From: Myxococcales bacterium | Lineage (GTDB): Bacteria; Myxococcota; UBA727; GCA-2721815 | NCBI GenBank assembly: GCA_002721815.1 | Contig: PBLQ01000021.1 | Coordinates: 65,460 to 129,459 of the forward strand | Direction: 5' to 3' | DNA length: 64,000 bases | Shown here: in pieces, positions 1,230 to 61,508 of the stretch | Layout: each line of letters starts with the position of its first letter | Numbering within the stretch: position 1 is the first letter of the stretch | Program-made: the position numbers and the translations under genes | The notes under the pieces: generated by a model | Databases searched by the model: none | What the model saw: the letters and a program-made list of their open reading frames with translations, nothing else | What the model was told of the DNA's origin: nothing

Positions 1230-1916
1230 GTGGTGCCTTTAATAGAGCAGGTATTGAGGCTCAAGAGGTGCATTTTGGCAACTGCGCGCGAGACATTGGT
1301 AGAAGAGATTTTGGCACTGGTGGCGTCCAAGCCCGATAACATTGCCCAAGATATAGAAGACCTTCTCAAGCGCTACCGGGTCCAAACCAAACCAAGAACT
1401 GAAATCCCAGAAGGCATGACCGCTCGCGATGCGCTGGCGGATCGTCTGGTGGCCATGTGGCGACAAGGGGTACTTGGAGATGCCACACAGCTTGGTAACC
1501 TCATCGATACCTTTCGCATGCAGCACAAAAAGACGGGGGGGGGCTCCCAAAAATCTGCCCGTAAAAAGGTGCGGCCACGTGAAAGCATCATGTCTGAGCA
1601 GCTCAGTGCTGGTGAGTCGGCCCATGTGCCTGCCCCCAAACTCATCACTTCCGAGCAGACTCCGGAAGAAGGGGAGCGCTCCAGGGGGCCCATATCATCA
1701 CCCGTGGCAGGCGGCCCTCAAGTCAAAAAGAAGACCCGCAGCGAATGCCCCAAATGTCACAGCCAAGGCGTGGTATTGGCACGTTCCTACGCAGGGGACG
1801 ATTATTTTTCTTGTATCTATTGTGGTTGGCAAGGGTACAAACCGGTCGAAAAACCTGATTTCAGTGTACCGGTGGCCACCCAACTTTTGGGGCAAGAAGG
1901 CTCCGGAAACAAATAA
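1230..1916 (+). CDS. hypothetical protein with C-terminal CxxC...CxxC zinc-ribbon
   Basis: 228-aa ORF with helical N-terminus, disordered K/S/P-rich linker and C-terminal 'CPKCHSQG...CIYCGWQGY'. No family recognised. Confidence 0.45.
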   Translation: MVPLIEQVLRLKRCILATARETLVEEILALVASKPDNIAQDIEDLLKRYRVQTKPRTEIPEGMTARDALADRLVAMWRQGVLGDATQLGNLIDTFRMQHKKTGGGSQKSARKKVRPRESIMSEQLSAGESAHVPAPKLITSEQTPEEGERSRGPISSPVAGGPQVKKKTRSECPKCHSQGVVLARSYAGDDYFSCIYCGWQGYKPVEKPDFSVPVATQLLGQEGSGNK

Positions 1917-2022: not shown

Positions 2023-5000
2023 TTACTGTACTGCAATACTCAAATCGTAGTTGTTCTCACTTTGGCTGAAGCCAATAACGCGAACATAGTATGTCTGATA
2101 ACTTTCAGGCACCGTGTACGTGAGACTTTCATCATCATCCACCGAAATGGATTCGGCCACATTGCAAAGCCCGGTTTCGTCATCGATATAGCCGGGGCAT
2201 GCTGCCGCATCATCGGTGGTGAAAAGTGCTAAATCCACATCGTCTGCATAGAGATCGGTAAAGGTGTAAAGAACGTCGATGGCGATGGTGTCGTCTGCGC
2301 TCGGATTCAGCTTATACCAGTCTGCGTCTCCGCCACAGATTTGCATGTTATTCATCTGCACCGTCCATGGGGTTTCGGCACTGAGTGACACCGCTTTGGA
2401 GGACGTGTTGTTATTTGGGGTGTTGGTGGCGTCGCTAGAGCTGGTGAAGGAGTCGAACCGGTCGTTGACGCAGCCAGATGCGGAACGGTCAGCGAACTGG
2501 ATGTCCAAGCTGTACTGGGTATCCACATCGTTACTCCAGTTGAGCACGCGAACGGCGTAGGTCCCTTGGTCGTTCAAAAAGCCTGTGATGGTTTCACTGC
2601 CACCGACCACGGGATAGACGTAAAGCAGTTCATGGTCGCCGTAGAAGTTGGCATCGGTGACCTCGTGCACCGTGAGAATAATATCGCTGTCTGCCGTCTC
2701 AGTGGTGAAGTTAATGGTCACTTGCTTGGCCTCTGTTAATTCAAAAGTGTAGTAATCAAGCCATGAATCATCCACATCGGAGCAGATGGTCATATCACTA
2801 AAAGAGGCTTGGCCGCCCGCCACATCGCTGGCTTGAATGGAGGTGCCCTCTTCAAAGGAGTCGTTGGGCTCAGCTCCGTCGTCCACACAGCCAGTGCTGG
2901 TGATGGTGGAGGTCAAGGTGTAGGTCACCCGTGTTTCATTGGCGCCTGATACGCGGAGGTAATATGTACCGGCGGTGAGGGCAGTGTAGTTGAGGGTGTT
3001 GGTGGTGCCGTTGGCAGTACCACTTTGAATGACTGCGCTGGTGGCATCTACCAATGAAAGGCTCAGGTTGTCTGCGGAACCCTCAACGGTGACGGACAGC
3101 AAATCGTCCTGAGCTAAGTTGATGCTGTAGTAGTCATCATCACCGGTGCAGCGTACGCCTTCTACGGTGCTGTTGGACAATGGCTGTGCCGTTTCGGGGT
3201 TATCATTGGGTTCGTAATCGTCTTCTACACAATCGTTCAAAGAGGCGATTAAGGTGTAATTCACATAGTCTTCGTTGACCCCATTGGTGGTCAAGGTCAC
3301 GGTGTATGTCCCGGCCACGGCGCCCCATTCTGCGTGCTCATTGTCGGTGGTAGAGTCGGCTGCCGCCACCACTTGACCGTCTGCATTTTTAATTTCGATA
3401 TTGATGTCGGCTTGTTCATGACCGAAGGTCACATCCACTGAGACCGTGCCTTGTCCATCGACGGTTAACTCAAAAGTGTCAGTGTCATCGGTGCACACCA
3501 CGCCACCGTATGGGCTACCGTCTGCAGCAATGGCCACAGGCTCGGTGATATCGTCTTCAGAACAAGGGTCTGCTGATGGTTCTGGCGTTAATGTAACGGC
3601 GATGGTGTAAGACGCGTTGGTCTCACTGGAGCTGCCGCCAAAATCGTCCAGCACGGCAATGTGATAGGTGCCAGCCGCTAAGTCCGTTAAGTTGCTAATG
3701 GGTGCGGTGGAGCCAGCGGCCATGACCTGGTGGGTGACCGCATCGCCGGAAATGGTAATGACACTGACGGCGGCATCGTCCAACTCGTTGGCAGTGAAGG
3801 TGTAGTAGTCGATGTCTGGATCGGAGGGACCGAAGTCACACAGTGAGCCGGTAACGGCTGGCGCACCGGGGGTGATGGGCATGGCCAATAAAGCAGATCC
3901 GTTGGGCTCGGTGTCCACTTGGACACAGTTTTCTGCTTGGGTGCTGTCGGCCACCACTTTCAGTTGGTAAGTGGTGTCTTCATTTAGTTTACTGGTGACC
4001 AGCAAGTAATACATACCAGTGGCTTCCAAGTCACCCACAGTGATGGGGTTGCCTTTGACCACGTTTAAGAAGGTTTGGTCGCTGGGGCATGGAACGATCT
4101 CTTCCCCTGCAGTATTAATGGGACAGCCATTGGGGCCACGCAACTCCAGCTCCACTTGAGCGGTGGTGAGCAAGGCTTGTGCGTGAAGGTTGGTGCCGGC
4201 AGTCAGACTCAGGCGGTACCAGTCATCGTCTTCGCCACAGATGGAGCCTGCTCGATTTTGACCGTCTGGTGTGATCAACGTGCCGCCCGCGGAGGTATTG
4301 TTGGCCGTATCGTCCGCATCGATGGCCACACAGCTTTCTTCGCCATTGTCGATGATGGCGGTGAGTTGATAGGGCACGTCTGTGGTAAGGTTAACGCCGG
4401 CCACTTCGATGTAGTAGTCGCCGCTCAGAGAAGTTTGGGTCAGGGATAAACCGGTGTTGCTGTTACCACCGCTGGTCACCGGCGCGTGGTTGGCAGTATC
4501 GTCCAGCAATCTCAAGGTCAGCTGCCCGGCAGCCCGGTTAAAGGTGAGATGGATTTCCGCGGCGCCTTCAGCGCTGATTTTGAAGTAATCTGAGTTGCCA
4601 GGACAAATGGTGCCTGCGTGTGTGGTACCTGAGGCCAGTGCCGGTGTGGTACTGCTCATGGCATCGTTGTTGGGCTCAGTGGCGTCAGAATCGTTGCAGC
4701 CGGGAATGCACACAGAGGTTTGCAGGTTGCAGATGCCCGATGCACAGTGACTGTTTTCGTAGCACTCCACGCAGTTGCCATGGTTGTCACAGAACTGATC
4801 GCCACAGTCGGCATCTTCGCTACAGGCGGAGCCGGCCACACAAAAGCCCCCACTGCACACACCGGTTTCACAATGGCTGGTGGTCACACATTCAACGCAT
4901 TGCCCTTTGCTCAAATCACAAAAGCCGCCCGCGCAGTCATTGTCGCTGGCACAAGGGGCACTTTCCACGCAGGTGTTGGTGTTCGCGTTACAAACCAGCC

Positions 5001-5202
5001 CATCACCGCAATCGCTGTCGATCAGACAACTCACGCATTCGTTGGTACTGATGTTACAGCGGCCAGAAGTGCAGTCGGCATCCCCTTGGCATCCCGTTTC
5101 GGCAGGGTTTTCAGCGTCATCGCTCGGGCAGCCGGTGGTGAATGCCAGACCAAGAGCCAAAGTGCAGAAAAGGGCGGTGTGCGTGAACGGTTTCAAAAAC
5201 AT
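2023..5202 (-). CDS. large secreted lipoprotein: N-terminal Cys-rich repeats followed by about six pre-peptidase C-terminal (PPC)-like repeats
   Basis: Lipoprotein signal 'MFLKPFTHTALFCTLALGLAFTTGC'. Repeated Cx4-6C modules ('CTSGRCN..','CGDGLVCN..','CAGGFCD..'). Repeated blocks with 'EPNDS/EPND...DDDYYS..L..G.YYLRV' typical of PPC domains. AGGAG RBS upstream of ATG at 5202. Confidence 0.7.
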   Translation of the reverse strand: MFLKPFTHTALFCTLALGLAFTTGCPSDDAENPAETGCQGDADCTSGRCNISTNECVSCLIDSDCGDGLVCNANTNTCVESAPCASDNDCAGGFCDLSKGQCVECVTTSHCETGVCSGGFCVAGSACSEDADCGDQFCDNHGNCVECYENSHCASGICNLQTSVCIPGCNDSDATEPNNDAMSSTTPALASGTTHAGTICPGNSDYFKISAEGAAEIHLTFNRAAGQLTLRLLDDTANHAPVTSGGNSNTGLSLTQTSLSGDYYIEVAGVNLTTDVPYQLTAIIDNGEESCVAIDADDTANNTSAGGTLITPDGQNRAGSICGEDDDWYRLSLTAGTNLHAQALLTTAQVELELRGPNGCPINTAGEEIVPCPSDQTFLNVVKGNPITVGDLEATGMYYLLVTSKLNEDTTYQLKVVADSTQAENCVQVDTEPNGSALLAMPITPGAPAVTGSLCDFGPSDPDIDYYTFTANELDDAAVSVITISGDAVTHQVMAAGSTAPISNLTDLAAGTYHIAVLDDFGGSSSETNASYTIAVTLTPEPSADPCSEDDITEPVAIAADGSPYGGVVCTDDTDTFELTVDGQGTVSVDVTFGHEQADINIEIKNADGQVVAAADSTTDNEHAEWGAVAGTYTVTLTTNGVNEDYVNYTLIASLNDCVEDDYEPNDNPETAQPLSNSTVEGVRCTGDDDYYSINLAQDDLLSVTVEGSADNLSLSLVDATSAVIQSGTANGTTNTLNYTALTAGTYYLRVSGANETRVTYTLTSTITSTGCVDDGAEPNDSFEEGTSIQASDVAGGQASFSDMTICSDVDDSWLDYYTFELTEAKQVTINFTTETADSDIILTVHEVTDANFYGDHELLYVYPVVGGSETITGFLNDQGTYAVRVLNWSNDVDTQYSLDIQFADRSASGCVNDRFDSFTSSSDATNTPNNNTSSKAVSLSAETPWTVQMNNMQICGGDADWYKLNPSADDTIAIDVLYTFTDLYADDVDLALFTTDDAAACPGYIDDETGLCNVAESISVDDDESLTYTVPESYQTYYVRVIGFSQSENNYDLSIAVQ

Positions 5203-6952: not shown

Positions 6953-8647
6953 GTGCCTATTCATTTTTTACCCAAACTTGGTTTTTTCGTTCTGCTTACA
7001 GGGGTTTTGAGTCTGTGGGGCTGTACCGCCAGTCAACAGAGCCAGCCCGCGCCCGTGGTGCCGACAAAACCGCTCACCCCCGAACAGGCATTGGTGGCTC
7101 AGGTCCCCATCCGCGGACCAGCAGATTTTGGGGTGGTATTTACCAGCGGGGTGCAGGGCAGTGTAAAACCCTGCGGATGTACCCAGAGGCCTTTGGGCGG
7201 TGTGTCTCGTTTGGCCACCGCGTTGAAGCATCTTCGCGCTCATTACGGGGACAACCTTTTGTTTTTGGATGCGGGGGACCTTCTTTTTGAAAAATCAAAG
7301 CCGAGGGCTGCGGTGGAGCAATGCCAAGACGAAGCCCGAATCGAATTACTGTTATCCACGTACAAAGATTTGGGTGTGGTTCAGACCGTACAGGGAAAAA
7401 GAGACACGGCAGCAGGGCTAGAGAAATACAAAAACTGGCTTGAAACCTTTCAAATCCACTATGCCGCAGACGCTATTGTGACCACACTGCAAAGGGTAGG
7501 CAAAAAAGAAATTGGGTTGTTGGCGTTACGCCCCGAAGGCGAATGGACCAGCCTGAAACCCAAAGTGGAACAAGCATTACACAACCTGTTACAGCAACAG
7601 ACTGATCACGTCGTTGTTTTGTCGCAACTTTCCTTGGAGAGCCTGAAGTCGATTTCATGGCCGAGCAAGGGTGTCGACGTCATTTTACAAGGGCATGACC
7701 CGGGTGAAGCACCGAAGCAGCCCGTGTCCCTTGGTGCGCAAGGGCCGTGGGTTTTGTTTAATGGGATTCAGGGTCAACACTTGGGCGTGGTGCATTTCTC
7801 TTGGCCGAACGGTGAAACCGATGAGCCACCTCAAGCGGACCTTAGTTTCTTTAACGTTGCAGCGGAGAAAAAAGTTTTGGCTATTCGCTTAGCGGGCATG
7901 GAGAAAAGACTGAAAGAAGCGACCAGCGATAAGCAGAAAATCTTCTTAAAAAAACGCATCAGTGACACTGCCTCGAAACTCCATGCTTTGGAGCATCAAA
8001 AAGCAGACCTGCCGCCCGAACCCGCCATGCGACTTTTTTCCTTTGCGCTTGTTCCAGAGATCACACCACACGAAGACGTAGAGATGGCGGTGGCCTCGTA
8101 CGAGCAGGCCATACCTGACTTGGTGGCCCAATGTGAGAAAGATGTGATCTGTGAGCCTGCAGAAGAAGGCGACGCCGTTTACGTCGGTGTACAAACGTGT
8201 GCAGCTTGTCATGATGCCGCCGTTAAACATTGGCGTCAAGCACTGCACCGTCGTTCCCCCATGGACGATACACCCGTGGGGCACTCACGGGCTTGGCTCA
8301 CTTTAGAAGAGATCAACAAAACCCGTGACCGGACCTGTGTGGGTTGTCACAGTGTGGGTTTCAATGAGCCGGGCGGGTATTGCAAAACCGATGAAGTGGG
8401 TTTTTTGGCGGATGTACAATGTGAGTCGTGCCATGGCGCTGGCAGTCTGCACAGTGTAACAGGCGATCCCAACTTTATCGATCGCGAGGTTCCAGAAAAT
8501 CATTGTCGGGGCTGTCATCATGTGCCGCACATTGAATCTTACGAATCCTTTAAATACGAAGAAAACCTCAAAATCATTTTGGGGCCAGGACACGGCGAGA
8601 AAAAGTGGCGACAGCTCATGGGCGATGCTGCTTTGACCCATGATTAA
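6953..8647 (+). CDS. tetraheme c-type cytochrome lipoprotein with degenerate 5'-nucleotidase/SoxB-like metallophosphatase N-domain
   Basis: Signal/lipobox 'LLTGVLSLWGC'. Four CxxCH motifs (CAACH, CVGCH, CESCH, CRGCH) in the C-terminal 170 aa. N-domain 'GGVSRLATALKHLRAHYGDNLLFLDAGDLLF' resembles the 5'-nucleotidase family, but the HTND/H metal-ligand positions are replaced ('VVFTSGVQG'). Confidence 0.65.
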   Translation: MPIHFLPKLGFFVLLTGVLSLWGCTASQQSQPAPVVPTKPLTPEQALVAQVPIRGPADFGVVFTSGVQGSVKPCGCTQRPLGGVSRLATALKHLRAHYGDNLLFLDAGDLLFEKSKPRAAVEQCQDEARIELLLSTYKDLGVVQTVQGKRDTAAGLEKYKNWLETFQIHYAADAIVTTLQRVGKKEIGLLALRPEGEWTSLKPKVEQALHNLLQQQTDHVVVLSQLSLESLKSISWPSKGVDVILQGHDPGEAPKQPVSLGAQGPWVLFNGIQGQHLGVVHFSWPNGETDEPPQADLSFFNVAAEKKVLAIRLAGMEKRLKEATSDKQKIFLKKRISDTASKLHALEHQKADLPPEPAMRLFSFALVPEITPHEDVEMAVASYEQAIPDLVAQCEKDVICEPAEEGDAVYVGVQTCAACHDAAVKHWRQALHRRSPMDDTPVGHSRAWLTLEEINKTRDRTCVGCHSVGFNEPGGYCKTDEVGFLADVQCESCHGAGSLHSVTGDPNFIDREVPENHCRGCHHVPHIESYESFKYEENLKIILGPGHGEKKWRQLMGDAALTHD

Positions 8648-9902
8648 AAGTTCGCAGAGAGGAACCCCTGCTTTGTTACAAGTTCACGAAGCTCAAGAAA
8701 AAATGGTGGCCTTGGTTGTGCCCACGAAAAGTGAGGTCCTTCATCTCACCCAAGCGGTAGGTCGCATCATCGCCGGCGCCCATGCGTCGAAACGGAACTG
8801 CCCGCCATGGGATAATTCGGCCATGGATGGCTTTGCGCTTCGCATGGATGATATTGCTTCCGCTACACCGGAATCGCCCATTCGACTCAAATTAGTGGGC
8901 GAGGTTGCTTGTGGCGATACGAGTGAGCCCTCGTTCGAATTGCCGCCCGCGTGCACCCTTCGAATTATGACGGGCGCGGTGGTGCCTCCGGGGGCGGATG
9001 CAGTGGTGATTAAGGAAAATACCCGTTTGGAGACCCAAGGCGAAGACACCTTTGTCATTTTCGAGGGACCGGCCAAGCGTCACGCGAACATACGGTTTGC
9101 CGGCGAAGATGTGGCGCAAGGCGCCGTGGTGGGCGACGATGGAAATTGCATCACACCCGCTCGATTGTCTTTGTTGGCCAGCGCTGGTTTTGCGCAGGTA
9201 GAGGTGTACCAAAAACCCAAAATTGCATTGATCGCCAGCGGCAGTGAATTGGCGCCACTGGGCGTCGAACCAGCGCCGCACCAAATCATCAACTCTAACA
9301 TTCATGCTGTGGCCGCCGCATTGGAATCTGCCGGTGCCTCTGTCCGTCTTTTAGGCATCGCCACCGATACTTTAGATGCCCACGTGGCGTTGATGTCATC
9401 AGCATTAGAAGACGAATGGGTGGTTACCATCGGCGGGGTGTCCATGGGGGAGAAAGACTGGGTTCGACCAGCGCTGACACAAATGAATGCGGAGCAGATC
9501 TTTTGGAAGGTCGCCATGCGCCCTGGTAAACCCTTGGTGTTTGCAAGGAAGGAACGCCAATTATTTGTGGGTCTCCCGGGAAACCCTGTCTCAGCTTTGG
9601 TGGGTACAGAGCTTTTTCTCAAGCCCATGATTCGTCGAGCGCAAAACAGACACAAATTATTTAAAACGCCCGTATGGGCTGAGCTGTCCAACGAAGCGCC
9701 CATTAAAAAACGTGCCGACTTTAAGACGTATTTTAGGGCGAAAGTGGATTTTGGATCTCAGCCCCCCAAAGCTTTGGCTTTAACGAAACAAAGTTCCGGT
9801 CAAATATCAGGTCTCGCAGCAGCCAATGCCTTATTGGTAGCGCCAGTGGGGCCAGAGAGCATTGCTCCGGGCGAGCCAGTTCAAGTTTTGCCCTTCTCTT
9901 GA
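8640..9902 (+). CDS. moeA: molybdopterin molybdenumtransferase MoeA
   Basis: 'PPWDNSAMDGFALR', 'GGVSMGEKDWV', 'GLPGNPVSA' MoeA/gephyrin motifs. ATG overlaps the cytochrome stop (ATGATTAA), indicating translational coupling. Confidence 0.85.
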   Translation: MIKSSQRGTPALLQVHEAQEKMVALVVPTKSEVLHLTQAVGRIIAGAHASKRNCPPWDNSAMDGFALRMDDIASATPESPIRLKLVGEVACGDTSEPSFELPPACTLRIMTGAVVPPGADAVVIKENTRLETQGEDTFVIFEGPAKRHANIRFAGEDVAQGAVVGDDGNCITPARLSLLASAGFAQVEVYQKPKIALIASGSELAPLGVEPAPHQIINSNIHAVAAALESAGASVRLLGIATDTLDAHVALMSSALEDEWVVTIGGVSMGEKDWVRPALTQMNAEQIFWKVAMRPGKPLVFARKERQLFVGLPGNPVSALVGTELFLKPMIRRAQNRHKLFKTPVWAELSNEAPIKKRADFKTYFRAKVDFGSQPPKALALTKQSSGQISGLAAANALLVAPVGPESIAPGEPVQVLPFS

Positions 9903-9909
9903 GTAGGCC

Positions 9910-11316
9910 TTAAATGAGCCAATAGACGAAACCACTACCTGCTAAAAGCGCAAACAAAAGAAGACTTGGAATCTGTAAAGACAGTGGTGTGGGTACTTTA
10001 ACGGGTACCGTCCTTTTGCGGTAAAAGAAAAAACTGGCCAAGCGCAACACCACCAAACTTTGTAATGGGCAACTCAACAAAATCGCCCAGCCGGTATAAA
10101 CCCATCCTTGTTCGAAGCTGAGTTGGGCCAAGCTGACACGTGCATCAAACCCGAGAGTCCCTGGAAAGCCCGACAGATTAGCAAGTCCCAGCAAAAAGAC
10201 GAAAGCCATGAATGGGTTGTTGAGCCCAATCCCTGAACAGCTTTCCCAGGTGAGCAATTCTTTGGAGCGTTGTGATAATGGCAGAAAGACAAAATAGACG
10301 AGCAAGCAACCCAAGCCCAGCGAGGCGAGAAGAGCCCAGCTAGGAATCAGTGGAGATTGTTCTTGTAACAGGGAACTCAGTTGTAACGAGGGCAGCAGCA
10401 ATGGCAAGTTGCCCACGATCAAAAAGGCCAAGATGCGATTTACGGTTCGTTGGTCCATGGCGGACAAAGCCGATAGGATAAAGGCGAAAAGGCAAAATCC
10501 AGCCAGAAACTGATCAGAGACCACCGACGAAGTGGACAGTTCGCCCGCGCGTGCCAATCGAAAACACAAGGTGGCCACCATGAAGGATTGCCCGATGAGT
10601 TGGACCATTGCTCCCACCGGGTGACCTCCGGTGAGTAAATCAACCCGGTTCATGTGAAAAGGTGTGATGCCCACCAATGTAAAAAGGGCGGTGGCAAACA
10701 ATAGAAGCGCCAGTAAAGCAGGGATGGCACCGGCCTGGGCGCTTTTAAACCACCAAGCCAATTCCACGGTGTGCATGGTGCTTAAGCCCACCACTACCGC
10801 CATGCTAAAAAACAAGAGCGCGAACCGTTGGTCGAAGAATGTTTTGAGCAGTGCTTCGGGCCCGTGTAATTTTTTTCCGCCCACCGTGAGGGGGAGCCCT
10901 AACGCCATTAATGCGATGCCGGTCGGTAAAATGAGCAGATAGTGATCCAAGGCCATACCACTCACCACCATCCCACCACAAAGTACCAACAAGGGATGCC
11001 CCCAACTGGCAAAATGGGATCGGCGTTCGTCTTGCGCCAGTAACAACCAATGCAATCCAATTTGGATTACATTCCACAAGAGGAGGCCCAAGAAGAAAAA
11101 GTCGTCTTCTCGCCAAATGGCATTGGCGCGTTCAGTAGGGTCATGGTTGTAGAGGACATAGCCAGTTTGGATGCCCAGCCATAAAGTGGCCAGGCATGCC
11201 AATGGAATGCCGCCTGTTTGGGGCTTGCGGGTGACCTTGGGCAACACCCATCCCAGCAAACCAAGTACGGCTGCGACCAGTATTGAAAGCGCCAATAAGG
11301 ATGGCACCAGAGTCAT
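9910..11316 (-). CDS. divergent NuoN-like antiporter-type membrane subunit
   Basis: Polytopic 468-aa protein. Last gene of a J-K-L-M-N-sized operon. 'LVGITPFHMNRVDLLTGGHPVGAMV' is alignable by eye to NuoN '[20 protein letters not shown]', but with W/P/D replaced. Confidence 0.5.
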   Translation of the reverse strand: MTLVPSLLALSILVAAVLGLLGWVLPKVTRKPQTGGIPLACLATLWLGIQTGYVLYNHDPTERANAIWREDDFFFLGLLLWNVIQIGLHWLLLAQDERRSHFASWGHPLLVLCGGMVVSGMALDHYLLILPTGIALMALGLPLTVGGKKLHGPEALLKTFFDQRFALLFFSMAVVVGLSTMHTVELAWWFKSAQAGAIPALLALLLFATALFTLVGITPFHMNRVDLLTGGHPVGAMVQLIGQSFMVATLCFRLARAGELSTSSVVSDQFLAGFCLFAFILSALSAMDQRTVNRILAFLIVGNLPLLLPSLQLSSLLQEQSPLIPSWALLASLGLGCLLVYFVFLPLSQRSKELLTWESCSGIGLNNPFMAFVFLLGLANLSGFPGTLGFDARVSLAQLSFEQGWVYTGWAILLSCPLQSLVVLRLASFFFYRKRTVPVKVPTPLSLQIPSLLLFALLAGSGFVYWLI

Positions 11317-11325
11317 CCAACCTCC

Positions 11326-12714
11326 CTAAGAAAAATGAAACAAAAAACCCGTCCAAAAAAGTGCGATCCCCAAGGTGCCACTCAGGTGCCACCGCCAAAC
11401 CACGGGCGGCGCGGCGCCTTCGGGCAAATGAACCCGTTCCACGGGGGCGGGCGTGTTCCAGCGACGCCATAATTGAAACAATGCGGTGTGAATGGAAAGC
11501 AGTCCAAAAATAAAAGCCATCAGCAATGCCACCAATTCGGTGAAGTGCCATTGATGGGCCACGTGTGTTTGAAAAAACGTATTTTCTGGCATTCCCAAAC
11601 TCCACAGTGGCAAGGCCATCAGCAGGACCGCAAACAAGAGCACGTGAATTTGTGCGAAACTGTGCATTTGTGGCCATCGTTTGAGTAGGCCCACCTGCGC
11701 ATGCTCAAAGGACGCCAAAATATCATTCTTTAAGTTGTGAAGTTCATCTACAAAAAGACCCAATGTGGCCAGGGCGGCCATGGCCCATGGCCAGGGGCCG
11801 TGAATGGAAAAAGGGAGTTTGATTTGCTCAAAGGCCAAAAGCGTAAAGGCGCTCAAAAGTAAAATAGCGTGGGTAAAGATCATCATGGGTCTGCGTTCTC
11901 CGATGGAGAGCAAACCGATCCAAAGAAAATGAACGACCAGTAAGATGGGCAAAAGGTGGGTGGCAGGTCCGAGCAATGAATCGCTCAGTGCCTGTTCTGG
12001 GGCGAAGTGAATGCCCAAGATAAATTGGGTCATGGTAAACAGCAAAGCCACTGATGGGCTGATGCTTCGTGCCACCCAACGGTGAAGAGAAAGAAAAGGA
12101 AAGATCCCCAGTCGCAACCATGATGCCAGGAACGTCCCCATGGCCAATGCCCAAGGATAGGGAATGAAATTAAAAAGGGATTCGGGCGCGAGCACAAAAC
12201 CCAATGCGATGGCATCAAAAACAATGAAAAGCGAAAAAACCCGTAATGCTGTTTGTGATCTTTGGCCAGTGCCCATTTGTGTCATTAACAGCCAAAAGAA
12301 AAAATGAGTGGAAAGCGCGAGGGACAATGAAAGCAGTGTGTGGGCCACGATGAAACTGCCCAAAACGAAGGCGCAGATCAAAAGAGTGGCAGTGATGAAA
12401 GGTTTGATTTTTTCAGGAGAATGAAAGGGGTGAATGGCGGTTGTGGTGAAGAGAAGTGTGAGTAAAGCAAAACACATACCTGCATTTTGCGCGTTGAACA
12501 CCAGCTGAATGTGGCGGGAGCCCAGGTGCAAATAGGCCGAAATTGGATTGCCTTCGAGAGCATGCTGCCACAGGGAACCATCCTCAGCGGGGAGCCAGCC
12601 CACCGCAAAACAAAGGCCTAAAGTGATGAGGGTATAAGGCCGCAAAAACGCATGATGCTTGGCGGGGACCAGAACCAAGCCAATAGCGGCCAAAAAAGGC
12701 AGCGCGATTGTCAT
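11326..12714 (-). CDS. divergent NuoM-like antiporter-type membrane subunit
   Basis: Polytopic protein. Start moved to 'MTIALPFLAAIG' to avoid a 139-bp overlap. 'FPFLSLHRWVARSISPS' is alignable by eye to NuoM 'VPLHGWLPDAHSQAP', with P/D replaced. Confidence 0.45.
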   Translation of the reverse strand: MTIALPFLAAIGLVLVPAKHHAFLRPYTLITLGLCFAVGWLPAEDGSLWQHALEGNPISAYLHLGSRHIQLVFNAQNAGMCFALLTLLFTTTAIHPFHSPEKIKPFITATLLICAFVLGSFIVAHTLLSLSLALSTHFFFWLLMTQMGTGQRSQTALRVFSLFIVFDAIALGFVLAPESLFNFIPYPWALAMGTFLASWLRLGIFPFLSLHRWVARSISPSVALLFTMTQFILGIHFAPEQALSDSLLGPATHLLPILLVVHFLWIGLLSIGERRPMMIFTHAILLLSAFTLLAFEQIKLPFSIHGPWPWAMAALATLGLFVDELHNLKNDILASFEHAQVGLLKRWPQMHSFAQIHVLLFAVLLMALPLWSLGMPENTFFQTHVAHQWHFTELVALLMAFIFGLLSIHTALFQLWRRWNTPAPVERVHLPEGAAPPVVWRWHLSGTLGIALFWTGFLFHFS

Positions 12715-12728
12715 ACACAACAATACGG

Positions 12729-14747
12729 TCAAAGTTTCTGACTCCACCAATAGAGGCTGACCCCTACGAACAAAAGAAAAACGCTGAGGACGCGGCGGCT
12801 TTCGCCATTGTGAAAGAGCCAAAAACAAAAACGAATCACTGAGCTGGGCGCCCGCCAAATGTGCCACATGAGGCCACCGGCTAATAAGGGTTGGATGATG
12901 CGTCGAGAAAGGAAGGTCAGGCGCAGGACATTTAATTCCACCGAGGTGTTGAGGTGCGTATCAACGGGTGAAGGTGCTTGCTCAGGCTCGAAGTACTTTC
13001 TTAAGGAACGTTGGCCACCCGTTTGGGTGGGTTTAGCTGTCTTGCCGAAAACCAAGTAAGCGAAGAGCCAACCTCCAAAGGCTGCCCCCCAGATCCAGCC
13101 GTAAAAGAACCATTGTGCTTGGGCGTCTACCAACACATCCAAAGCGGGTTGGTAAGACGTTAATAAAAAGAGTGCGGTTCTGATTTCAGGTTCTACCCAA
13201 GATAGAAAAGGAGCGTACGCCGCATCAAAAAAGTCAGTGAGTCGGTGAACCGGCAAGGATAAAATATTGGGTGCAATGGAGATGCCTAGAACGAAGATAG
13301 ACACCACGGACAAAAAGAGATTGTGGGACTTTGGCGCAGGGGCATTGGGCAGTTCATTCGATGCTTCTCCGCCGAAGACCTGAAAAACTGTTTTGAATGC
13401 ACCCGCGGTGAAAAGAAACGAGAAGAGCACCAATGCAATGCAAATAATGAAATGAAAATAGGGGCGAATGGCCCAGTCCGCCCACATGAAGGATGCATGA
13501 AAAAACCAAGACCCCAGCAAGGGGCACATGGAAAAAGTCATCAACATTCTAATTTGTTCTTGGCGTCTAAAAGACTTCCACAGTCCGCCCAGCTCGCCCA
13601 AAAGATCTTCACCTTTCATGGCTTCACGAACGCTGATGTGGGTGATGACAAAAAAGGGCGTCACTAAAAAGAACAATAAAATCTGCAAAAAGCCCGCGGT
13701 GCCGTCGTAAGGTATGTTGGCCAAAACAGTGAGTGAAAAAACAGCCATGAGGGCCCAATGATCGGCATCCGACCATGTGACAGCGGTGAACAACCGATAC
13801 GCATGAAACAGCGCACTGCCCGCAATGGCCACCAGAACCCAGGACAGGTTCCAAGAAATCAGAACATGGACGAGTTGGGTTTGGCGCAACACGATCAGTC
13901 CACCACCAAAGAGTACCCAGATGACGAAAACGCGGGTGATGGGCTCTTGGGCCTGCAGATGATTTTTGACTGCATTAGCCCCGAACCCCAAGCCTTGCCG
14001 GCTTAGAACACCGAGCAGGACAAATAAGGAACACCAAGAAAAAATGTGGTCGAGGTAATGACCTTGGAACAGGCCCATTTGCAACGGGATAACCTTTAAT
14101 TGAGCGGCTTGCGTCAACCAGATTTGAGGGTTGTGATTCCCAAAGGTGAAAAAGAGAAAAAGAACGGCCAGAAACATTGAAGCATCGCCGAGACGATGCT
14201 GTACAAAAAGCCAGGTACTGGTGAGACCCGACTGAGGCTCGGCATTTTTGAATGACCAGGTCGCCAACAATCCACCCAGCGACAATAAACACGTGGTTTG
14301 CATCGGGTTTGCGGTGAGAAACATGAGGTTCAAGATGGACCACAGACAGGTTTGTTTAATCAGAATCGAGGACGATGGTTGGGTTTGTGATATTTTTTGC
14401 CAGATGGTCAAAAGGATGACGGACCCCGACACAGCAAAAAGTGTCAGCGCTTCAAACGCAGTGAGTTCCATGGTGGCCCAAATGGGGCCAGGCTTCATCT
14501 GTAAAATTCCGCCTTCGGGGGCGCCCAAGGCAAGATCGTGGTATCCGCCCGCGTAGAAAATTCGTTGCAGCGCCCGCCAGGCAAAAAGGCAGTTTGTGCT
14601 CTGTGTGATCAGGAGAATGGTTAAAAGAAAATTTTCAGTTTGGCGACGGCTTAGTATCCAAAGCGCCACGATAGAGCCCATGGGAATGAGTGCTAAAGGC
14701 AGTAATTCAGGTGCGGGAATCATGGAGAGAAACGGCATCATGTTCAT
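12729..14747 (-). CDS. divergent NuoL-like antiporter-type membrane subunit
   Basis: 672-aa polytopic protein. 'KVIPLQMGLFQGHYLDHIFS' at about aa 220 is alignable by eye to NuoL 'LPLQTWLADAMAGPTPVS', with W/D replaced. Start ATG overlaps the K-like stop (ATGA). Confidence 0.45.
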   Translation of the reverse strand: MNMMPFLSMIPAPELLPLALIPMGSIVALWILSRRQTENFLLTILLITQSTNCLFAWRALQRIFYAGGYHDLALGAPEGGILQMKPGPIWATMELTAFEALTLFAVSGSVILLTIWQKISQTQPSSSILIKQTCLWSILNLMFLTANPMQTTCLLSLGGLLATWSFKNAEPQSGLTSTWLFVQHRLGDASMFLAVLFLFFTFGNHNPQIWLTQAAQLKVIPLQMGLFQGHYLDHIFSWCSLFVLLGVLSRQGLGFGANAVKNHLQAQEPITRVFVIWVLFGGGLIVLRQTQLVHVLISWNLSWVLVAIAGSALFHAYRLFTAVTWSDADHWALMAVFSLTVLANIPYDGTAGFLQILLFFLVTPFFVITHISVREAMKGEDLLGELGGLWKSFRRQEQIRMLMTFSMCPLLGSWFFHASFMWADWAIRPYFHFIICIALVLFSFLFTAGAFKTVFQVFGGEASNELPNAPAPKSHNLFLSVVSIFVLGISIAPNILSLPVHRLTDFFDAAYAPFLSWVEPEIRTALFLLTSYQPALDVLVDAQAQWFFYGWIWGAAFGGWLFAYLVFGKTAKPTQTGGQRSLRKYFEPEQAPSPVDTHLNTSVELNVLRLTFLSRRIIQPLLAGGLMWHIWRAPSSVIRFCFWLFHNGESRRVLSVFLLFVGVSLYWWSQKL

Positions 14748-15037
14748 TAGCCCCTTAGGTTGCGCCAGGCACCCAATTGGGTGGTTTTAAGTTTTTCAAA
14801 AAGAAACTGTGCGAGAATGAACATGACGAGTTGATGAATGAGCACCAAGGCCAGAAGCCCAAAAGCGATGGCATCACCCCAGGGATGTTGCCACTGCTGA
14901 TTGCCATGTAGGATCGCCAATGCCACCCCCAAAAGAGCCACATCGATGTTCAGCGATACCATGATCATTTGCCGTCGAAACAAAGCGCCAAGAACACCCA
15001 TGGTCATCAGCGCGATGGCGATCCAACCCAGGCTCAT
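14747..15037 (-). CDS. NuoK (chain 4L)-like small membrane subunit
   Basis: About 97 aa from internal Met 'MSLGWIAIALMTMGVLGALFRRQMIMVSLNIDVALLGVALAIL...'. This follows the NuoK pattern 'GLxGLxxRRNxL...E..IN..ALAFV' and the C-terminal 'L....NLRG', but both conserved TM Glu are absent. Confidence 0.5.
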   Translation of the reverse strand: MSLGWIAIALMTMGVLGALFRRQMIMVSLNIDVALLGVALAILHGNQQWQHPWGDAIAFGLLALVLIHQLVMFILAQFLFEKLKTTQLGAWRNLRG

Positions 15038-15510
15038 GACCGGCTCCTTTGGCGTATGATGAAAGGCAGAAGACCGGTCACGCTCACAAGAAAGATAGCG
15101 CCCAAATAGACGGCCCATAAAGAAAGCGAGGGATGGTTATTGGCAGCGGTACTTTTTTGAATATCGCTCAACAAGCTCGGCCACAAAGGGAGAATGGACA
15201 AAAGAAAATAGGCCGAAACCAACAGCAGCAAAATTCTTGAAATGCCCAGATGGGTATCCAGCGGTTGTGTGGGCTCTTTGTTAAAGCGTTGAACGCCTTT
15301 GATGTAAATCCATGGGGTGATGACTCCAAAACCCAAGATCAATATGAGGCACAAGATCCAAGGACTTTGTTGAGCGATCATCACGGAGGCCACCGATAGA
15401 AAGACCATCAAAAAACCGAAGACTGCCCGTTGTGGTTCTCTGACGAATAAAACCACACCGCCCCCGCCAATGGCGAAGCAAGTTTGAATGATGAGAAAGA
15501 AGGTTTCCAT
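15034..15510 (-). CDS. NuoJ (chain 6)-like membrane subunit
   Basis: Start moved to 'METFFLIIQTCFAIGGGGVV', a NuoJ-like N-terminus. Size about 158 aa. Stop abuts the K-like start. Confidence 0.5.
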   Translation of the reverse strand: METFFLIIQTCFAIGGGGVVLFVREPQRAVFGFLMVFLSVASVMIAQQSPWILCLILILGFGVITPWIYIKGVQRFNKEPTQPLDTHLGISRILLLLVSAYFLLSILPLWPSLLSDIQKSTAANNHPSLSLWAVYLGAIFLVSVTGLLPFIIRQRSRS

Positions 15511-15601
15511 GGCGGTCCGTTGTTTGGGCTTTAAAACTACCAAAACCACCTTGGGAGTCCAAAATATCGTGCTAAAGTGGCCCAATAAAGGAGCGATAAC
15601 G

Positions 15602-55550: not shown

Positions 55551-56252
55551 GTGTACATGCCTTCACAAACAGATGCTTCACAAATCCACCCCGTCTGGGA
55601 AGAGAAATACCAAGCAGGACATGCAGAACGGTACCCTTGGGATGTGGTGGTTAGCTTTGTATATAAAAACCGGCCCAAAAATAAGCGCCTCAGTGATATT
55701 TCTGTTTGTGAAGTGGGGTTCGGCAGCGGCTGTAACTTGTGGTTTGCCGCCCGTGAAGGCTTTCAAGTATCGGGCATTGAAGGGAGCCCTGCGGCCGTTC
55801 GATTCGCTCAAAATCGATTCGCCGAAGAAGGCTTAAGCGGTGATTTACGCCTGGGTAATTTTTGTAACTTACCTTTTGAGAGCCTTTCTTTTGATTTGGT
55901 GATCGATCGCGCCTCTTTGGCATGTGTAGGGAAAGCAACAAACAAAGTTGCGCTAAGAGAAATCCATCGTGTCCTTAAGCCTGGGGGGAGATTTTTGTAT
56001 AACCCTTACGGAGCGGCGCATACCAGTAATGCGATGAGTTCTGAAGGACCGGATGGCTCAAGAACTCAAATACAAGGAGGCAGTTTGGTTGGGGTTGGAG
56101 ATATATCCTTTTACACTCAAACCGAATTGGAAGATTCGTTTACAGGCTTGGATTGGACATTTTTATCCATGGAGAATCGTCGGTTAGTTCAACACATTGG
56201 AGATGCCGATGTTATACATGAGGATTGGGTTGTTGTTGTTGAGAAAAGATAA
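55551..56252 (+). CDS. class I SAM-dependent methyltransferase
   Basis: 'VCEVGFGSGCNLWFAAREGFQVSGIE' motif I and post-I. 'VLKPGGRFL' motif III. Confidence 0.6.
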   Translation: MYMPSQTDASQIHPVWEEKYQAGHAERYPWDVVVSFVYKNRPKNKRLSDISVCEVGFGSGCNLWFAAREGFQVSGIEGSPAAVRFAQNRFAEEGLSGDLRLGNFCNLPFESLSFDLVIDRASLACVGKATNKVALREIHRVLKPGGRFLYNPYGAAHTSNAMSSEGPDGSRTQIQGGSLVGVGDISFYTQTELEDSFTGLDWTFLSMENRRLVQHIGDADVIHEDWVVVVEKR

Positions 56253-56270
56253 CCGTAAGAAGGGGATGCA

Positions 56271-56972
56271 ATGATCGTTTCCATTTCACAACCAGCCTAT
56301 TTGCCTTGGTTGGGTTATTTTGACCGCTTGAGGCGCTCAGACGTGGCAGTGGTTCTTGACCATGTTCAGTTAGAGCGTCGTGGTTTTACGCATCGTAATA
56401 AAATTTTGAACCAAGGTAAGCCCATGTGGCTGAGCATTCCGCTTAACAAGAAAGGTAACTTTCAAACCACCATCAACGAGATAACGGTTAATAATGACGA
56501 GAAGTGGCAGCACAAACATTGGCAAACGATCTTACAATGCTACAAAAAAGCACCACATTTTATCGAATTGAAGAATGAACTGGCTTCATTTTACGAAAAA
56601 GATTGGGTGCTTCTTAACGAGCTTTTAAAATCCATGACGCCTTTTTGGATGGGGAAACTGGGGATAGATACTCCCATGGTGTTTAGTTCGGAGATAGAAT
56701 TACAGCATACGAAGAGTGATTTGATTTTGGAGTTATGTCGAAAACAAAAAGCGACCAAATATCTTTCCGGCCCTTTTGGTCGCGATTACTTAGAAACAAA
56801 AAGTTTTCAAGATGCAGGAATTGAAATCATTTATCACGATTATGAGCACCCTGTTTACCGGCAGCAATCAGATAATTTTGAACCATTTTTATCTATCCTA
56901 GACTTGATGGCTAATCACGGTGATGAATCCTTAAGCCTTCTAGCGGCCGGAAGCCCAGTAAAGAAAGCGTAA
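56271..56972 (+). CDS. WbqC-family protein (polysaccharide biosynthesis)
   Basis: 'MIVSISQPAYLPWLGYFDRL' is the characteristic WbqC-like N-terminus. Confidence 0.65.
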   Translation: MIVSISQPAYLPWLGYFDRLRRSDVAVVLDHVQLERRGFTHRNKILNQGKPMWLSIPLNKKGNFQTTINEITVNNDEKWQHKHWQTILQCYKKAPHFIELKNELASFYEKDWVLLNELLKSMTPFWMGKLGIDTPMVFSSEIELQHTKSDLILELCRKQKATKYLSGPFGRDYLETKSFQDAGIEIIYHDYEHPVYRQQSDNFEPFLSILDLMANHGDESLSLLAAGSPVKKA

Positions 56973-56982
56973 TGGATATACC

Positions 56983-57873
56983 TTGCAAAGTTTAAGAACC
57001 ATATCTGATATGACCCACCGCCTGGTATTGGGAACTGTTCAACTGGGGATGGACTATGGAGTTAGTAATCTAGGGGGGCAGCCCAGCCGACAAGCCGCTT
57101 TTGAATTGCTAACTGCTGCATGGGAAGCTGGAATTCGGTATTTTGATACGGCACCGGTCTACGGCTCAGAGTCCTTATTGGGGAATTTCATTATCGCTAA
57201 CGGCGTCAATAGCGAAATAAAGATGCTGACGAAAATCCCAGAAATTAAGAATATGAACTCTTGGGAGGAGCAGTTTAATAATTCACTAAGTCGGTCTTTA
57301 GATAATCTAAAATGTACAACTATTGATACCCTTTTTTTTCACCATGCTTCCGATGCAAATCTGTTGAAAGCACACCCAGAAACATTTCATCGCATGATGA
57401 AACAATGGCCTGTCTCAAGTTTTGGCATATCAGTATACGAGCCAGGGGATTGCTTAGCATTTCAAACGGCAAATCTTCCGGTTGCCATTCAGTTCCCTTA
57501 CAACACGGTGAATCGCGTTTTTGATGCACTGGATTGGTCATTGGGGCCAAGGTTTGCACGTTCGGTTTTTTTGCAGGGGCTTTTGGCTTCAGCAGGAGCC
57601 TTGCGAGAAAATGTACCCCAAGCTGTCGTGGAATTTCATCGTTCGTATCATTCCCTCTTGGCTCAGGCTAATATTGAGCCAAAATCTTTTGCGCTCTCAT
57701 TTGCTTTGAACGCCGTAAATACTGATAAAGTTCTAATTGGCGTTAACTCTGTCAAAGAGTTAGAAGAGCTACTCGCTTGTCCTTTAATGACATCTTCAGA
57801 GCAGGAAGAAGTGTCTTTTCAAGGTCTTGTGATAAATCCGAAAGAGCTTGACCCGCGCGTATGGCCTTCCTGA
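56983..57873 (+). CDS. aldo/keto reductase family oxidoreductase
   Basis: 'LGTVQLGMDYG', 'FDTAPVYG' AKR blocks. Confidence 0.65.
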   Translation: MQSLRTISDMTHRLVLGTVQLGMDYGVSNLGGQPSRQAAFELLTAAWEAGIRYFDTAPVYGSESLLGNFIIANGVNSEIKMLTKIPEIKNMNSWEEQFNNSLSRSLDNLKCTTIDTLFFHHASDANLLKAHPETFHRMMKQWPVSSFGISVYEPGDCLAFQTANLPVAIQFPYNTVNRVFDALDWSLGPRFARSVFLQGLLASAGALRENVPQAVVEFHRSYHSLLAQANIEPKSFALSFALNAVNTDKVLIGVNSVKELEELLACPLMTSSEQEEVSFQGLVINPKELDPRVWPS

Positions 57874-57905
57874 TTATTTTAGGCTTTTTGAAACGCTCAG
57901 CAGGG

Positions 57906-58763
57906 TTATTCGAAAGATTTATAAGGTGACTTTTGAAGAAGTTGAATAAATATATCAGCGCTTTGTTTCATGCCAAAATGAGCTAATATTTGCAGCGCAC
58001 AATCTATTTCTTCTTCCGTATTTTTAAATGTTCTTTTTTGGTAAAGCCCCTGGTTGATTTTAAATATCCATGGATGCGCCACAGCCACTTGATTAAGTGT
58101 TTTTAAAGAGACCGTTTTCTTGCAGAAAGCGAATAGTAAAGAAAACATTGCAATATCTGCTGGGTAGTCGATTGTTAGCCGGATGTTTTTTATCAGGCTG
58201 GGGGTTTGAAATTCGTGTACTCGCGCTCGGGGATGATTTTTGAAACAAAGGGTTACATGTTCTTGTTCTTCTTGGGTTAATGCTTCGGCATTTATGGATT
58301 TAAAGGCCTCTCCGGATATGATTTCAAAGTTCATTCCAATCGGAAGACCGGTGGATCTGGTGTAGTGGTTATTTTGATCTTGGTGAGCCCTAATTGTTTC
58401 ATCCAAAAGGGAGGTATCAATAATAGGGTTATCACCGGTCACTCGAATGACAATATCCAAATCGTGTAACTGAGATACTTTTTGATATCTTTCAAAAACA
58501 TTATTCTCATCGCCTCTAAAACAAGGGATTCCTGATTGTGTTGTGAATTCTTCGATCTTGTCGTCAATCGGGTTTGATGTTGTTGCAATAATGATATCGG
58601 TGATGCGCTCAGAGCGATTGAGCTGCGCACAAATACGACCCAATAGAGTAGGGCCATCTGGGCCTGGTATAGGCATCATAACCTTGTCAGGAAGTCGGGT
58701 GGAGCCCATTCTTGCCTGTACAACCGCTCCGATTTTTAATTTAGACAATGGTCCATCCACCAT
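57906..58763 (-). CDS. CMP-sugar synthetase-type cytidylyltransferase (acylneuraminate/pseudaminic-acid cytidylyltransferase family, PseF/SpsF-like)
   Basis: 'KIGAVVQARMGSTRLPDKVM' N-terminal nucleotide-binding block of CTP_transf_3. AT-rich gene. Confidence 0.65.
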   Translation of the reverse strand: MVDGPLSKLKIGAVVQARMGSTRLPDKVMMPIPGPDGPTLLGRICAQLNRSERITDIIIATTSNPIDDKIEEFTTQSGIPCFRGDENNVFERYQKVSQLHDLDIVIRVTGDNPIIDTSLLDETIRAHQDQNNHYTRSTGLPIGMNFEIISGEAFKSINAEALTQEEQEHVTLCFKNHPRARVHEFQTPSLIKNIRLTIDYPADIAMFSLLFAFCKKTVSLKTLNQVAVAHPWIFKINQGLYQKRTFKNTEEEIDCALQILAHFGMKQSADIFIQLLQKSPYKSFE

Positions 58764-59532
58764 CTATCACAAAATTTTGTCCCGTGATGTAGTTCGCTGC
58801 ATCTGAAGAAAGGAAAACAAAAATACCTCCAAGCTCAGCGGGGTGACCAATTCGATTTAGTGCCGTTTTTTTCTTTAGGGCTTCGGTAAAGGCAGTGTTT
58901 GCTTGGACGGCTTGTGATGGAAATGCTCCCGGCGTTACGACATTGACATTAATATTATGCTGACCCAAGTATGCCGCATAATATTTAGTTAGCTGGATAA
59001 CACCAGCCTTCGCCGCACCGTAGTGAGGAGGGTTTAATGACTCCGGTGCGTTATCGTACACCGAAAAGTCTGGCGCGACCATTCCGTACATAGACGAGAC
59101 ATTGATTATTTTACCATAACCTTGTTTTTTCATGATTGGAATGAGTGACTTAATGGTTCTAAATGTGGATGTTAGTGTCCCATCAAGCCCATGATTGAAA
59201 TCATCGTCACTCATGTTTTCGGGAGACTGCCCTTGAATAAAGAACGCATTGTTGATGAACGAATCAATGCGCCCTGTCTCGGCATGAATGCCATCAATGC
59301 TGTCTTTGATAGATTGATCGCTCGAAATGTCACAGTGTCGAAAAAAAAGTTTACTTTTATCTACTGAAGAAAACGCCTTGTTAAACTTATCCTCTGTACG
59401 CGCTAAGACATATACGGTTGCATCATGGCGCAACAAGCCGTTTACGATTTCATGGCCCAAATGGCCGTATCCGCCTGTTATCAGGACAACCTTGGAGCTT
59501 AGATTGATAAGTGGGGTTGTTTCCATTTGCAA
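58741..59532 (-). CDS. short-chain dehydrogenase/reductase (SDR)
   Basis: 'VVLITGGYGHLGHEIV' Rossmann motif and 'YGAAKAG' catalytic YxxxK. Confidence 0.7.
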   Translation of the reverse strand: MQMETTPLINLSSKVVLITGGYGHLGHEIVNGLLRHDATVYVLARTEDKFNKAFSSVDKSKLFFRHCDISSDQSIKDSIDGIHAETGRIDSFINNAFFIQGQSPENMSDDDFNHGLDGTLTSTFRTIKSLIPIMKKQGYGKIINVSSMYGMVAPDFSVYDNAPESLNPPHYGAAKAGVIQLTKYYAAYLGQHNINVNVVTPGAFPSQAVQANTAFTEALKKKTALNRIGHPAELGGIFVFLSSDAANYITGQNFVIDGGWTIV

Positions 59533-59625
59533 GCTCAGAGTGAGGTTTGAATAGGCATATAATTGTTAAGATAAATCACTATATTTTAAATGACTGAGTC
59601 ATGTTAAATGCATCGCAGAAAAAGT

Positions 59626-61248: not shown

Positions 61249-61508
61249 TGTATTTCCTTGCCAGTGTCTCGGCGTTTTCTGTTCAACGGCTACTGGTTCA
61301 ATCGGCCGATACGGAGAATTCTTTAGGCCGATTAAAGTAGATCTAAGTCTGCCCCGAAAAAATAAAAAACAAGGTAAAACAGGGGCTTACAGCGATGCGG
61401 GAGATCGTCGGGTTTGAAAGTGAAAGCAAGGTTTAAGTTTTTTTGTCGCTTTTTCGATTAGTGGTAGTGAAGACAATGACGTCCCTGAGTGAAGTAGAGG
61501 AATCCAAT

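Follow-up and report, generated by a model that had tools for sequence, protein, structure and literature searches.

A family of 'COG0737, UshA-like, CxU' selenoproteins, with 76 selenocysteine (Sec) and 92 cysteine homologs, was described in the Global Ocean Sampling data (Zhang and Gladyshev 2008, PMC2398784). It is listed again as a CxU selenoprotein, with the model NF041198, in a 2026 review (PMC13188914), and likewise as a UshA-like selenoprotein with the same model in a 2022 review. The literature that we found on the family consists of entries in selenoprotein tables only, in which the tetraheme domain is not discussed, and no relevant publication was found that links multiheme or c554 proteins to nucleotidases, UshA or selenocysteine. 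The family is widespread, and its status as a marine selenoprotein dates back to 2008. Here we analyze a cysteine-form member encoded in a 64,000-nucleotide stretch of contig PBLQ01000021.1 from a Myxococcales bacterium (this whole stretch is called the window below). The protein, 98% identical to MBL91595.1 from the metagenome-assembled genome of a marine 'Myxococcales bacterium', combines a degenerate 5'-nucleotidase-like N-domain, which contains a conserved Cys-Gly-Cys motif, with a cytochrome c554-like tetraheme C-domain, and its gene is followed by moeA. On balance, it is probably an oxidoreductase of the periplasm that moves electrons between its four hemes and the CxC centre.

The NCBIfam model NF041198 ('UshA_like_PCGU', UshA-like (seleno)protein) matches residues 54-529 of the window protein to its positions 19-515 of 519 (E = 3.1e-60), and the window protein has both PCG[U/C] after strand beta-1 and the full-length UshA-like plus multiheme architecture in one stretch. 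At the level of architecture it is a member of this family, sharing with it the degenerate 5'-nucleotidase N-domain with PCG[U/C], the helical linker and the c554-like tetraheme C-domain; cysteine forms of the family are known. It differs from the core of the family in being more degenerate than many core members at the ligand positions of motifs I and IV, and in that its clade has a clade-specific moeA synteny. As judged by sequence comparison, it falls in a clade of marine Myxococcota that is divergent and contains cysteine forms only. When clustered at 50% identity, the family yields 123 clusters if E ≤ 1e-30 is required; at E ≤ 1e-10 there are 1512, of which some match in the heme domain only. 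Its members are found in Myxococcota, Desulfobulbia, Planctomycetota, Verrucomicrobiota, Armatimonadota, Acidobacteriota and other taxa. An earlier reading of the window, made from its letters alone (the sequence-only reading), had called the arrangement unrecognised. It is in fact catalogued, both as NF041198 and as the COG0737 UshA-like CxU selenoprotein (PMC2398784). What is new here is a divergent cysteine-form member of a functionally uncharacterised family whose architecture was already on record, and the novelty of this window is lowered further by the local nature of the moeA link.

The AlphaFold2 (AF2) model of the window protein, built with an alignment of 67 sequences as input, has a predicted local distance difference test score (pLDDT) of 92.5 and a predicted template modelling score (pTM) of 0.88. 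The top matches of this model in a Foldseek search against PDB all belong to the 5'-nucleotidase family (E values from 8e-14 to 5e-11, 280-490 aligned columns) and include CD73 (7.8e-14), SoxB (1e-11) and UshA (4e-11), as well as the T. thermophilus 5'-nucleotidase, E. coli c4898 and NadN. Comparison of an N-domain-only profile with PDB sequences detected a 5'-nucleotidase (5.4e-18), CD73 (2e-14), SoxB (6e-12) and UshA (1e-7). Homology of the N-domain was established by these two approaches because Pfam found nothing on the N-domain alone: in the window protein Metallophos is not detected, nor is 5_nucleotid_C (PF02872) at E ≤ 1, and the N-domain scan of 20 homologs yielded weak Metallophos matches in two. 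In the window protein the place of PF02872 is taken up by helices and the c554 domain. The 5'-nucleotidase-family block claimed by the sequence-only reading was found (GGVSRLATALKHLRAHYGDNLLFLDAGDLLF at residues 82-112, with VVFTSGVQG at 61-69), and the motifs GGxxR, DxGD and the G-x-Y-L-G-like QGQxLG are common to the N-domain and the 5'-nucleotidases. The calcineurin-like fold that it postulated is kept in the predicted structure; of the Pfam domains that it named as a check, Cytochrome_C554 scores above threshold, but Metallophos and 5_nucleotid_C go undetected. Its more specific comparison with SoxB did not hold, as the TIGR04486 score is 29.6 bits versus 550 and the similarity is to 5'-nucleotidases generally. 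SoxB has the same superfamily fold and, likewise in the periplasm, takes part in a redox pathway rich in hemes, but it is a dimanganese hydrolase without hemes, and the window protein lacks the corresponding ligands.

Compared with 5'-nucleotidase, UshA, CD73 and CpdB, the window protein has the same alpha/beta sandwich fold of the N-domain, several of the motifs and the long interdomain helix. The differences are that the dinuclear-metal ligands and the Asn-His pair are absent, a CxC/CxU motif has been gained, and the nucleotide-binding C-domain has been swapped for a heme domain. Two of the seven ligand or catalytic positions are retained (Table 1), namely D109 and H248, and the latter is not conserved across the family. 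The loss of the dinuclear-metal ligands, as first claimed from the sequence, is borne out by the profile and PDB alignments and by a survey of 124 family sequences, none of which has the full set of metal ligands; the Asn-His of GNHE is never present in them. Near the former metal site, D106, D109 and D151 are largely conserved. The description of the domain as catalytically degenerate is correct for the phosphoesterase ligands, but it misses the invariant PCGC motif, whose alternation with Sec points to a new redox centre. As a phosphoesterase the N-domain is essentially dead, but very probably it is active in some other way.

The PCGC motif (residues 73-76) is more conserved than any other feature of the N-domain, C74, G75 and C76 being invariant in 67 aligned homologs. 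It occupies the loop after strand beta-1, shortly past the degenerate motif I; in 5'-nucleotidases, motif I contributes to the active site. Among 80 homologous loci taken from representative genomes, 57 contain the motif, and in 17 of these, coming from several phyla, the C76 column is an in-frame stop codon, always TGA, beyond which homology continues in frame. The window has TGT at this codon and thus encodes the cysteine form; all aligned relatives of the window protein at 33-59% identity also have Cys in the C76 column, with no Sec form among them. The TGA codon is followed by a GC-rich stretch, ...YTGGGCGGTCTGYCC..., and a short hairpin is found about 15 nt downstream in most of the 17 sequences, the hairpin-forming stretch reading ...GGGCGGTCTGYCC... 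in most TGA loci. RNAalifold applied to the 17 segments downstream of TGA gave no consensus hairpin, and a selenocysteine insertion sequence (SECIS) is proposed because of the folds of individual sequences, the fixed TGA column and the published status of the family. When Sec and Cys alternate at a single column, this classically points to a catalytic redox residue; C76 aligns with selenocysteine and is thereby marked as a likely redox-active residue.

Four CxxCH motifs, the predicted sites of heme attachment, are invariant in the 67 homologs and sit within the C-terminal 150 residues. The Pfam domain Cytochrome_C554 (PF13435) matches residues 415-495 (E = 2e-13, 51.5 bits versus a cut-off of 20.8), and the PDB sequence match is the Nitrosomonas cytochrome c554 (1bvb/1ft5, E = 3.4e-12). 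The C-domain aligns to residues 2-96 of N. europaea c554 with three CxxCH motifs in register. Cytochrome c554 is a free-standing 211-amino-acid carrier of electrons from hydroxylamine oxidoreductase to the membrane, whereas in the window protein the c554 module forms the C-terminal domain of an enzyme-like fusion. The candidate distal His ligands are H444 and H500, invariant in the same 67 homologs, and H526 and H547, nearly so; these four can suffice as putative distal ligands for four bis-His hemes. A need for C74 or C76 as a heme axial ligand was considered and set aside, since the four conserved His residues can serve all hemes.

The gene product is probably an exported, lipid-anchored periplasmic protein. 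Its N-terminus reads M/V-PIHFLPK-LGFFVLLTGVLSL-WG-C24, in which the hydrophobic stretch PIHFLPKLGFFVLLTGVLSLWG-C24 resembles, by eye, a lipoprotein signal; the Cys24 column is conserved in at least 90% of 26 aligned homologs, and the Trp at position -2 is atypical for a lipobox. The initial description of a 564-amino-acid lipoprotein with four C-terminal CxxCH motifs is therefore confirmed, with the lipoprotein status putative.

A related C-terminal c554 multiheme region was found by the same homology search in four proteins that begin with AhpC/TSA-Redoxin domains (P0086, P0094, P0103 and P0115; 23-25% of the query aligned, 32-33% identity). These fusions have the same domain order as the window protein, an N-terminal thiol-redox domain with a c554-type module after it. 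They differ in that their thiol domain has the thioredoxin fold and known peroxidase or disulfide-reductase chemistry, whereas the window protein has its thiol/selenol centre placed on a phosphoesterase fold; the fusions themselves are likewise uncharacterised. By analogy, the placement of a c554 domain after thiol domains would support a heme-to-thiol relay. C-G-C disulfides are redox-active in Erv2-type shuttle disulfides and in CGC peptides with PDI-like potential, and the reported potentials of c554 hemes span a range able to exchange electrons with such a couple.

In the mechanism that we propose, a calcineurin fold has lost its dinuclear metal site and gained Cys-Gly-Cys (Cys-Gly-Sec in many relatives) after strand beta-1, and a cytochrome c554-like tetraheme domain has replaced the nucleotide-binding C-domain of 5'-nucleotidases. 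The four hemes would exchange electrons with periplasmic carriers on one side and, on the other, with the dithiol-disulfide couple of C74/C76 (in Sec forms, a selenenylsulfide). This couple would act on a small substrate that occupies the old phosphoester pocket. The analysis shows the fold, the loss of ligands, the invariance of the motif, the Sec/Cys alternation, the heme motifs and the family membership at the level of architecture; the electron flow, its direction and the substrate are inferred. Sec enzymes are mostly reductive, and for this reason we favor a reductase whose substrate is a peroxide, a disulfide, a polysulfide or of the oxyanion type, the choice of direction and substrate being a guess. 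That hemes feed a selenol or thiol centre placed on a phosphoesterase fold free of metal is a testable hypothesis, and the cysteine-form members in Myxococcus and Myxococcaceae isolates (L014, L015) may permit genetic tests. A bolder version, which we hold to be doubtful, is that the UshA-like (seleno)proteins, including the cysteine clade, constitute a new enzyme class of heme-driven thiol/selenol reductases on a phosphoesterase scaffold, acting on a periplasmic phosphate-like oxyanion or a sulfur or selenium species, and that co-transcription with moeA in marine Myxococcota would reflect a real link, for example through molybdate/tungstate or through sulfur/selenium for a molybdoenzyme.

The open reading frame (ORF) assigned to moeA matches MoeA_N (134 bits), MoCF_biosynth (90.2) and MoeA_C (43.9), all above the Pfam cut-offs, and scores 310.7 bits with the NCBIfam MoeA equivalog NF007960, below its cut-off of 440. 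The sequence-only reading had the stop codon of the cytochrome gene overlap the moeA start (ATGATTAA). An in-frame ATG at 8640 does overlap the TAA, by 8 nt and with no obvious Shine-Dalgarno sequence, but the relatives support a start at TTG 8673, which lies 25 nt past the cytochrome stop and 9 nt after a Shine-Dalgarno-like GAGAGGA (8657-8663): in three close relatives (L081, L082 and L084) MoeA starts, from ATG, with 'MLQVHEAQ' or 'MIHVQEAQ', which corresponds to TTG 8673 of the window. Hence, from the aligned N-termini, the true moeA start may be past the cytochrome stop, with no overlap. Whichever start is used, moeA is almost certainly transcribed together with the cytochrome gene; the space between the two contains no terminator-like site, and such sites in the region are no more frequent than chance expects.

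The order of cytochrome gene and moeA on one strand is seen in five of 11 close-clade loci (the window, L081, L082, L084 and L090). In L090, where the proteins are 34% identical to those of the window, the two genes overlap by 4 nt. No moeA is nearby in the other six (L083, L085, L086, L087, L088 and L089), and no MoeA is among the families reported for 88 immediate neighbors of distant family members, where the only recurrent families are DUF1573/Ig-like (HYDIN-like Ig domains, the commonest, 10 of 88) and DUF4159 (5). A scan of the other large ORFs of the window revealed no molybdoenzyme, molybdenum cofactor (Moco), sel or sox genes; it found mnmE/mnmG, fatty-acid oxidation genes, a VWA-domain protein and an outer-membrane efflux protein, all of them housekeeping or unrelated. 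Thus, of the suggested coupling to moeA, the adjacency on the same strand stands, but the link exists in one subclade only and coupling through an overlap is uncertain. The pairing looks like a subclade feature in a deeply syntenic housekeeping region, that is, a lineage-specific gene order and not a family-wide link.

The lost metal ligands and the pairing with moeA, repeated in four other loci and tight in the most divergent of them, are also what one would expect if the N-domain were a dead scaffold or binding module attached to a tetraheme cytochrome that works with MoeA, for example in periplasmic molybdoenzyme maturation or electron supply. We find this quite unlikely, since the invariant PCGC with its Sec alternation argues for a catalytic centre, moeA is absent beside the six other clade members and from the families of the 88 distant neighbors, the scanned window ORFs include no molybdoenzyme or other Moco gene, and the cytochrome is exported while MoeA stays in the cytoplasm. 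Alternatively, the Cys-X-Cys/Sec site could bind a soft metal (Cu(I), Hg) or As, Se or Te species that the hemes reduce or oxidise, and the protein would then serve in the periplasm as a metal(loid) reductase or in detoxification, built on a scaffold that binds phosphate-type oxyanions. CxC/CxU can chelate soft metals, the ancestral pocket of the 5'-nucleotidase fold binds such oxyanions, and the aspartates D106, D109 and D151 are still largely conserved near the old site; moreover, several catalogued Sec families with CU or UxC handle metals (MerB-like, HgcA and the SO_0444 transporter; table in PMC13188914). However, no ars, mer, cop or ter genes occur beside the gene in any examined locus, and a role of this kind, though a real alternative, seems unlikely to us. 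The fold, the profile similarity to 5'-nucleotidases and SoxB, and the weak TIGR04486 match would suit a surviving phosphoesterase, or a thiosulfohydrolase like SoxB, to which a cytochrome has been joined, but with five of the seven ligand or catalytic positions gone, the Asn-His of GNHE absent in every member, a TIGR04486 score far below its cut-off and no Pfam Metallophos or 5_nucleotid_C match, the chance of this is very slight; hydrolase or SoxB activity is essentially ruled out by the ligand positions collected in Table 1.

Several observations weigh against our own proposal, the periplasmic oxidoreductase with a heme-linked CxC centre. The window protein scores 204.2 bits with NF041198, under the equivalog cut-off of 275, and the same holds for P0007 (219) and P0029 (168), which belong to its clade, and for a Myxococcaceae homolog (237); the cut-off is passed, at 281-584 bits, by the Sec-type L011, L029 and L041 and the Cys-type L024 (Scalindua) and P0052. 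The family as a whole has no conserved operon partner that would hint at a substrate, and there is no redox partner among the 88 neighbors. The pairing with moeA persists, with tight spacing, down to 34% identity, so that a functional link to MoeA may exist. On a fixed alignment, covariation in the SECIS falls short of statistical significance: a hand-drawn stem of 7 bp has 68% paired cells and covariation no better than shuffles, this alignment being confounded by register shifts between the sequences and by the overlap of the stem with conserved Leu-Gly-Gly codons. Finally, CGC in the oxidising periplasm could be a structural disulfide, and the protein a plain electron-transfer cytochrome whose 5'-nucleotidase-like domain merely anchors or docks the heme domain. 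The periplasm favors disulfides, CD73 has cysteines in the aligned stretch, and the motif loop (residues 71-80) has a pLDDT of 88 in the AF2 model, slightly below its flanks. What makes this explanation, in our opinion, improbable to a high degree is that PCGC is conserved beyond any other N-domain feature and that the costly selenocysteine is used repeatedly exactly at the C76 column, in 17 loci from several phyla, as is typical of catalytic redox residues and not of structural ones.

Table 1. Features of the tetraheme UshA-like gene and its surroundings (positions in the window unless a locus is named).
Feature	Position	Strand	Basis or remark
Gene for 564-aa tetraheme UshA-like protein (putative lipoprotein), cysteine form	6953..8647	+	GTG start; stop TAA 8645-8647; ORF and translation
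Putative signal peptide with lipobox LSLWG-C24	6953..7024	+	read from sequence; helix 6-21 in AF2 model
Metal-free 5'-nucleotidase-like (calcineurin-fold) N-domain, residues ~55-300	7115..7852	+	Foldseek, profile vs PDB sequences
P73-C74-G75-C76 motif, codons ccc tgc gga tgt	7169..7180	+	C76 column is TGA (selenocysteine) in 17 of 57 loci
Classical DxH: G66 / Q68 in window protein			
Classical GD: D109 in window protein			
Classical GNHE: G148-K149-R150-D151 in window protein			
Classical motif IV His: Q225 in window protein			
Classical GH: G247-H248 in window protein			
Interdomain helical hairpin and helix, residues ~298-395	7844..8137	+	DSSP on AF2 model: helices 298-322, 326-347, 374-395
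Cytochrome c554-like tetraheme domain, residues ~405-564	8165..8644	+	Pfam PF13435; PDB c554; conserved His columns
Heme-binding motif 1, C416-A-A-C-H420	8198..8212	+	
Heme-binding motif 2, C462-V-G-C-H466	8336..8350	+	
Heme-binding motif 3, C490-E-S-C-H494	8420..8434	+	
Heme-binding motif 4, C518-R-G-C-H522	8504..8518	+	
moeA (molybdopterin molybdotransferase)	8640..9902	+	longest ORF, ATG 8640
Zinc-ribbon protein gene (CPKCHS...CIYCG)	1230..1916	+	BLASTP 36% identity, E 1e-46 to L083:4196-4828; alignment
Zinc-ribbon orthologs	L083:4196-4831, L085:5330-5986, L087:4346-5014, L088:4387-5004, L089:4439-5011		

In five of the six moeA-less loci of the clade, the gene directly upstream of the cytochrome gene encodes a zinc-ribbon protein, and in four it overlaps the cytochrome gene start. 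This protein, of about 190-228 amino acids, carries 'MATARE' at its N-terminus and the zinc ribbon at its C-terminus, and it matches no family. Its gene is also present in the window, where three inserted genes part it from the cytochrome gene: an ORF of 1059 amino acids (2023-5202, minus strand), which has PPC (pre-peptidase C-terminal) and weak Por_Secre_tail matches and is conserved in L082, a C26 peptidase gene and a ThiE-like gene. In six distant loci (L034, L052, L057, L065, L071 and L072), an ORF of 530-675 amino acids lies directly upstream of the UshA-like gene on the same strand and overlaps its start by 4-11 nt.

On the other side, five extremely divergent membrane-protein ORFs described as 'nuoJKLMN-like' occupy positions 9910-15585 of the minus strand. 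They adjoin moeA, as was pointed out from the sequence, but are transcribed convergently to it and so fall outside the cytochrome/moeA unit. The 468-amino-acid ORF of this cluster matches NuoN with 47 bits versus a cut-off of 332, and the 123-amino-acid ORF gives a weak NuoK match; the ORFs of 513, 672 and 183 amino acids have zero Pfam or NCBIfam matches. In L081 and L082 the cluster is again convergent to the cytochrome gene and moeA; in L083 and L088 it converges directly on the cytochrome gene. The same stretch, 9910-15585, shows a strong AT skew of the plus strand. Toward the end of the window the G+C content drops over the last 8 kb, being 0.42-0.44 at positions 56001-62000 versus about 0.50-0.55 before, and this low-G+C end may be foreign or otherwise atypical DNA.

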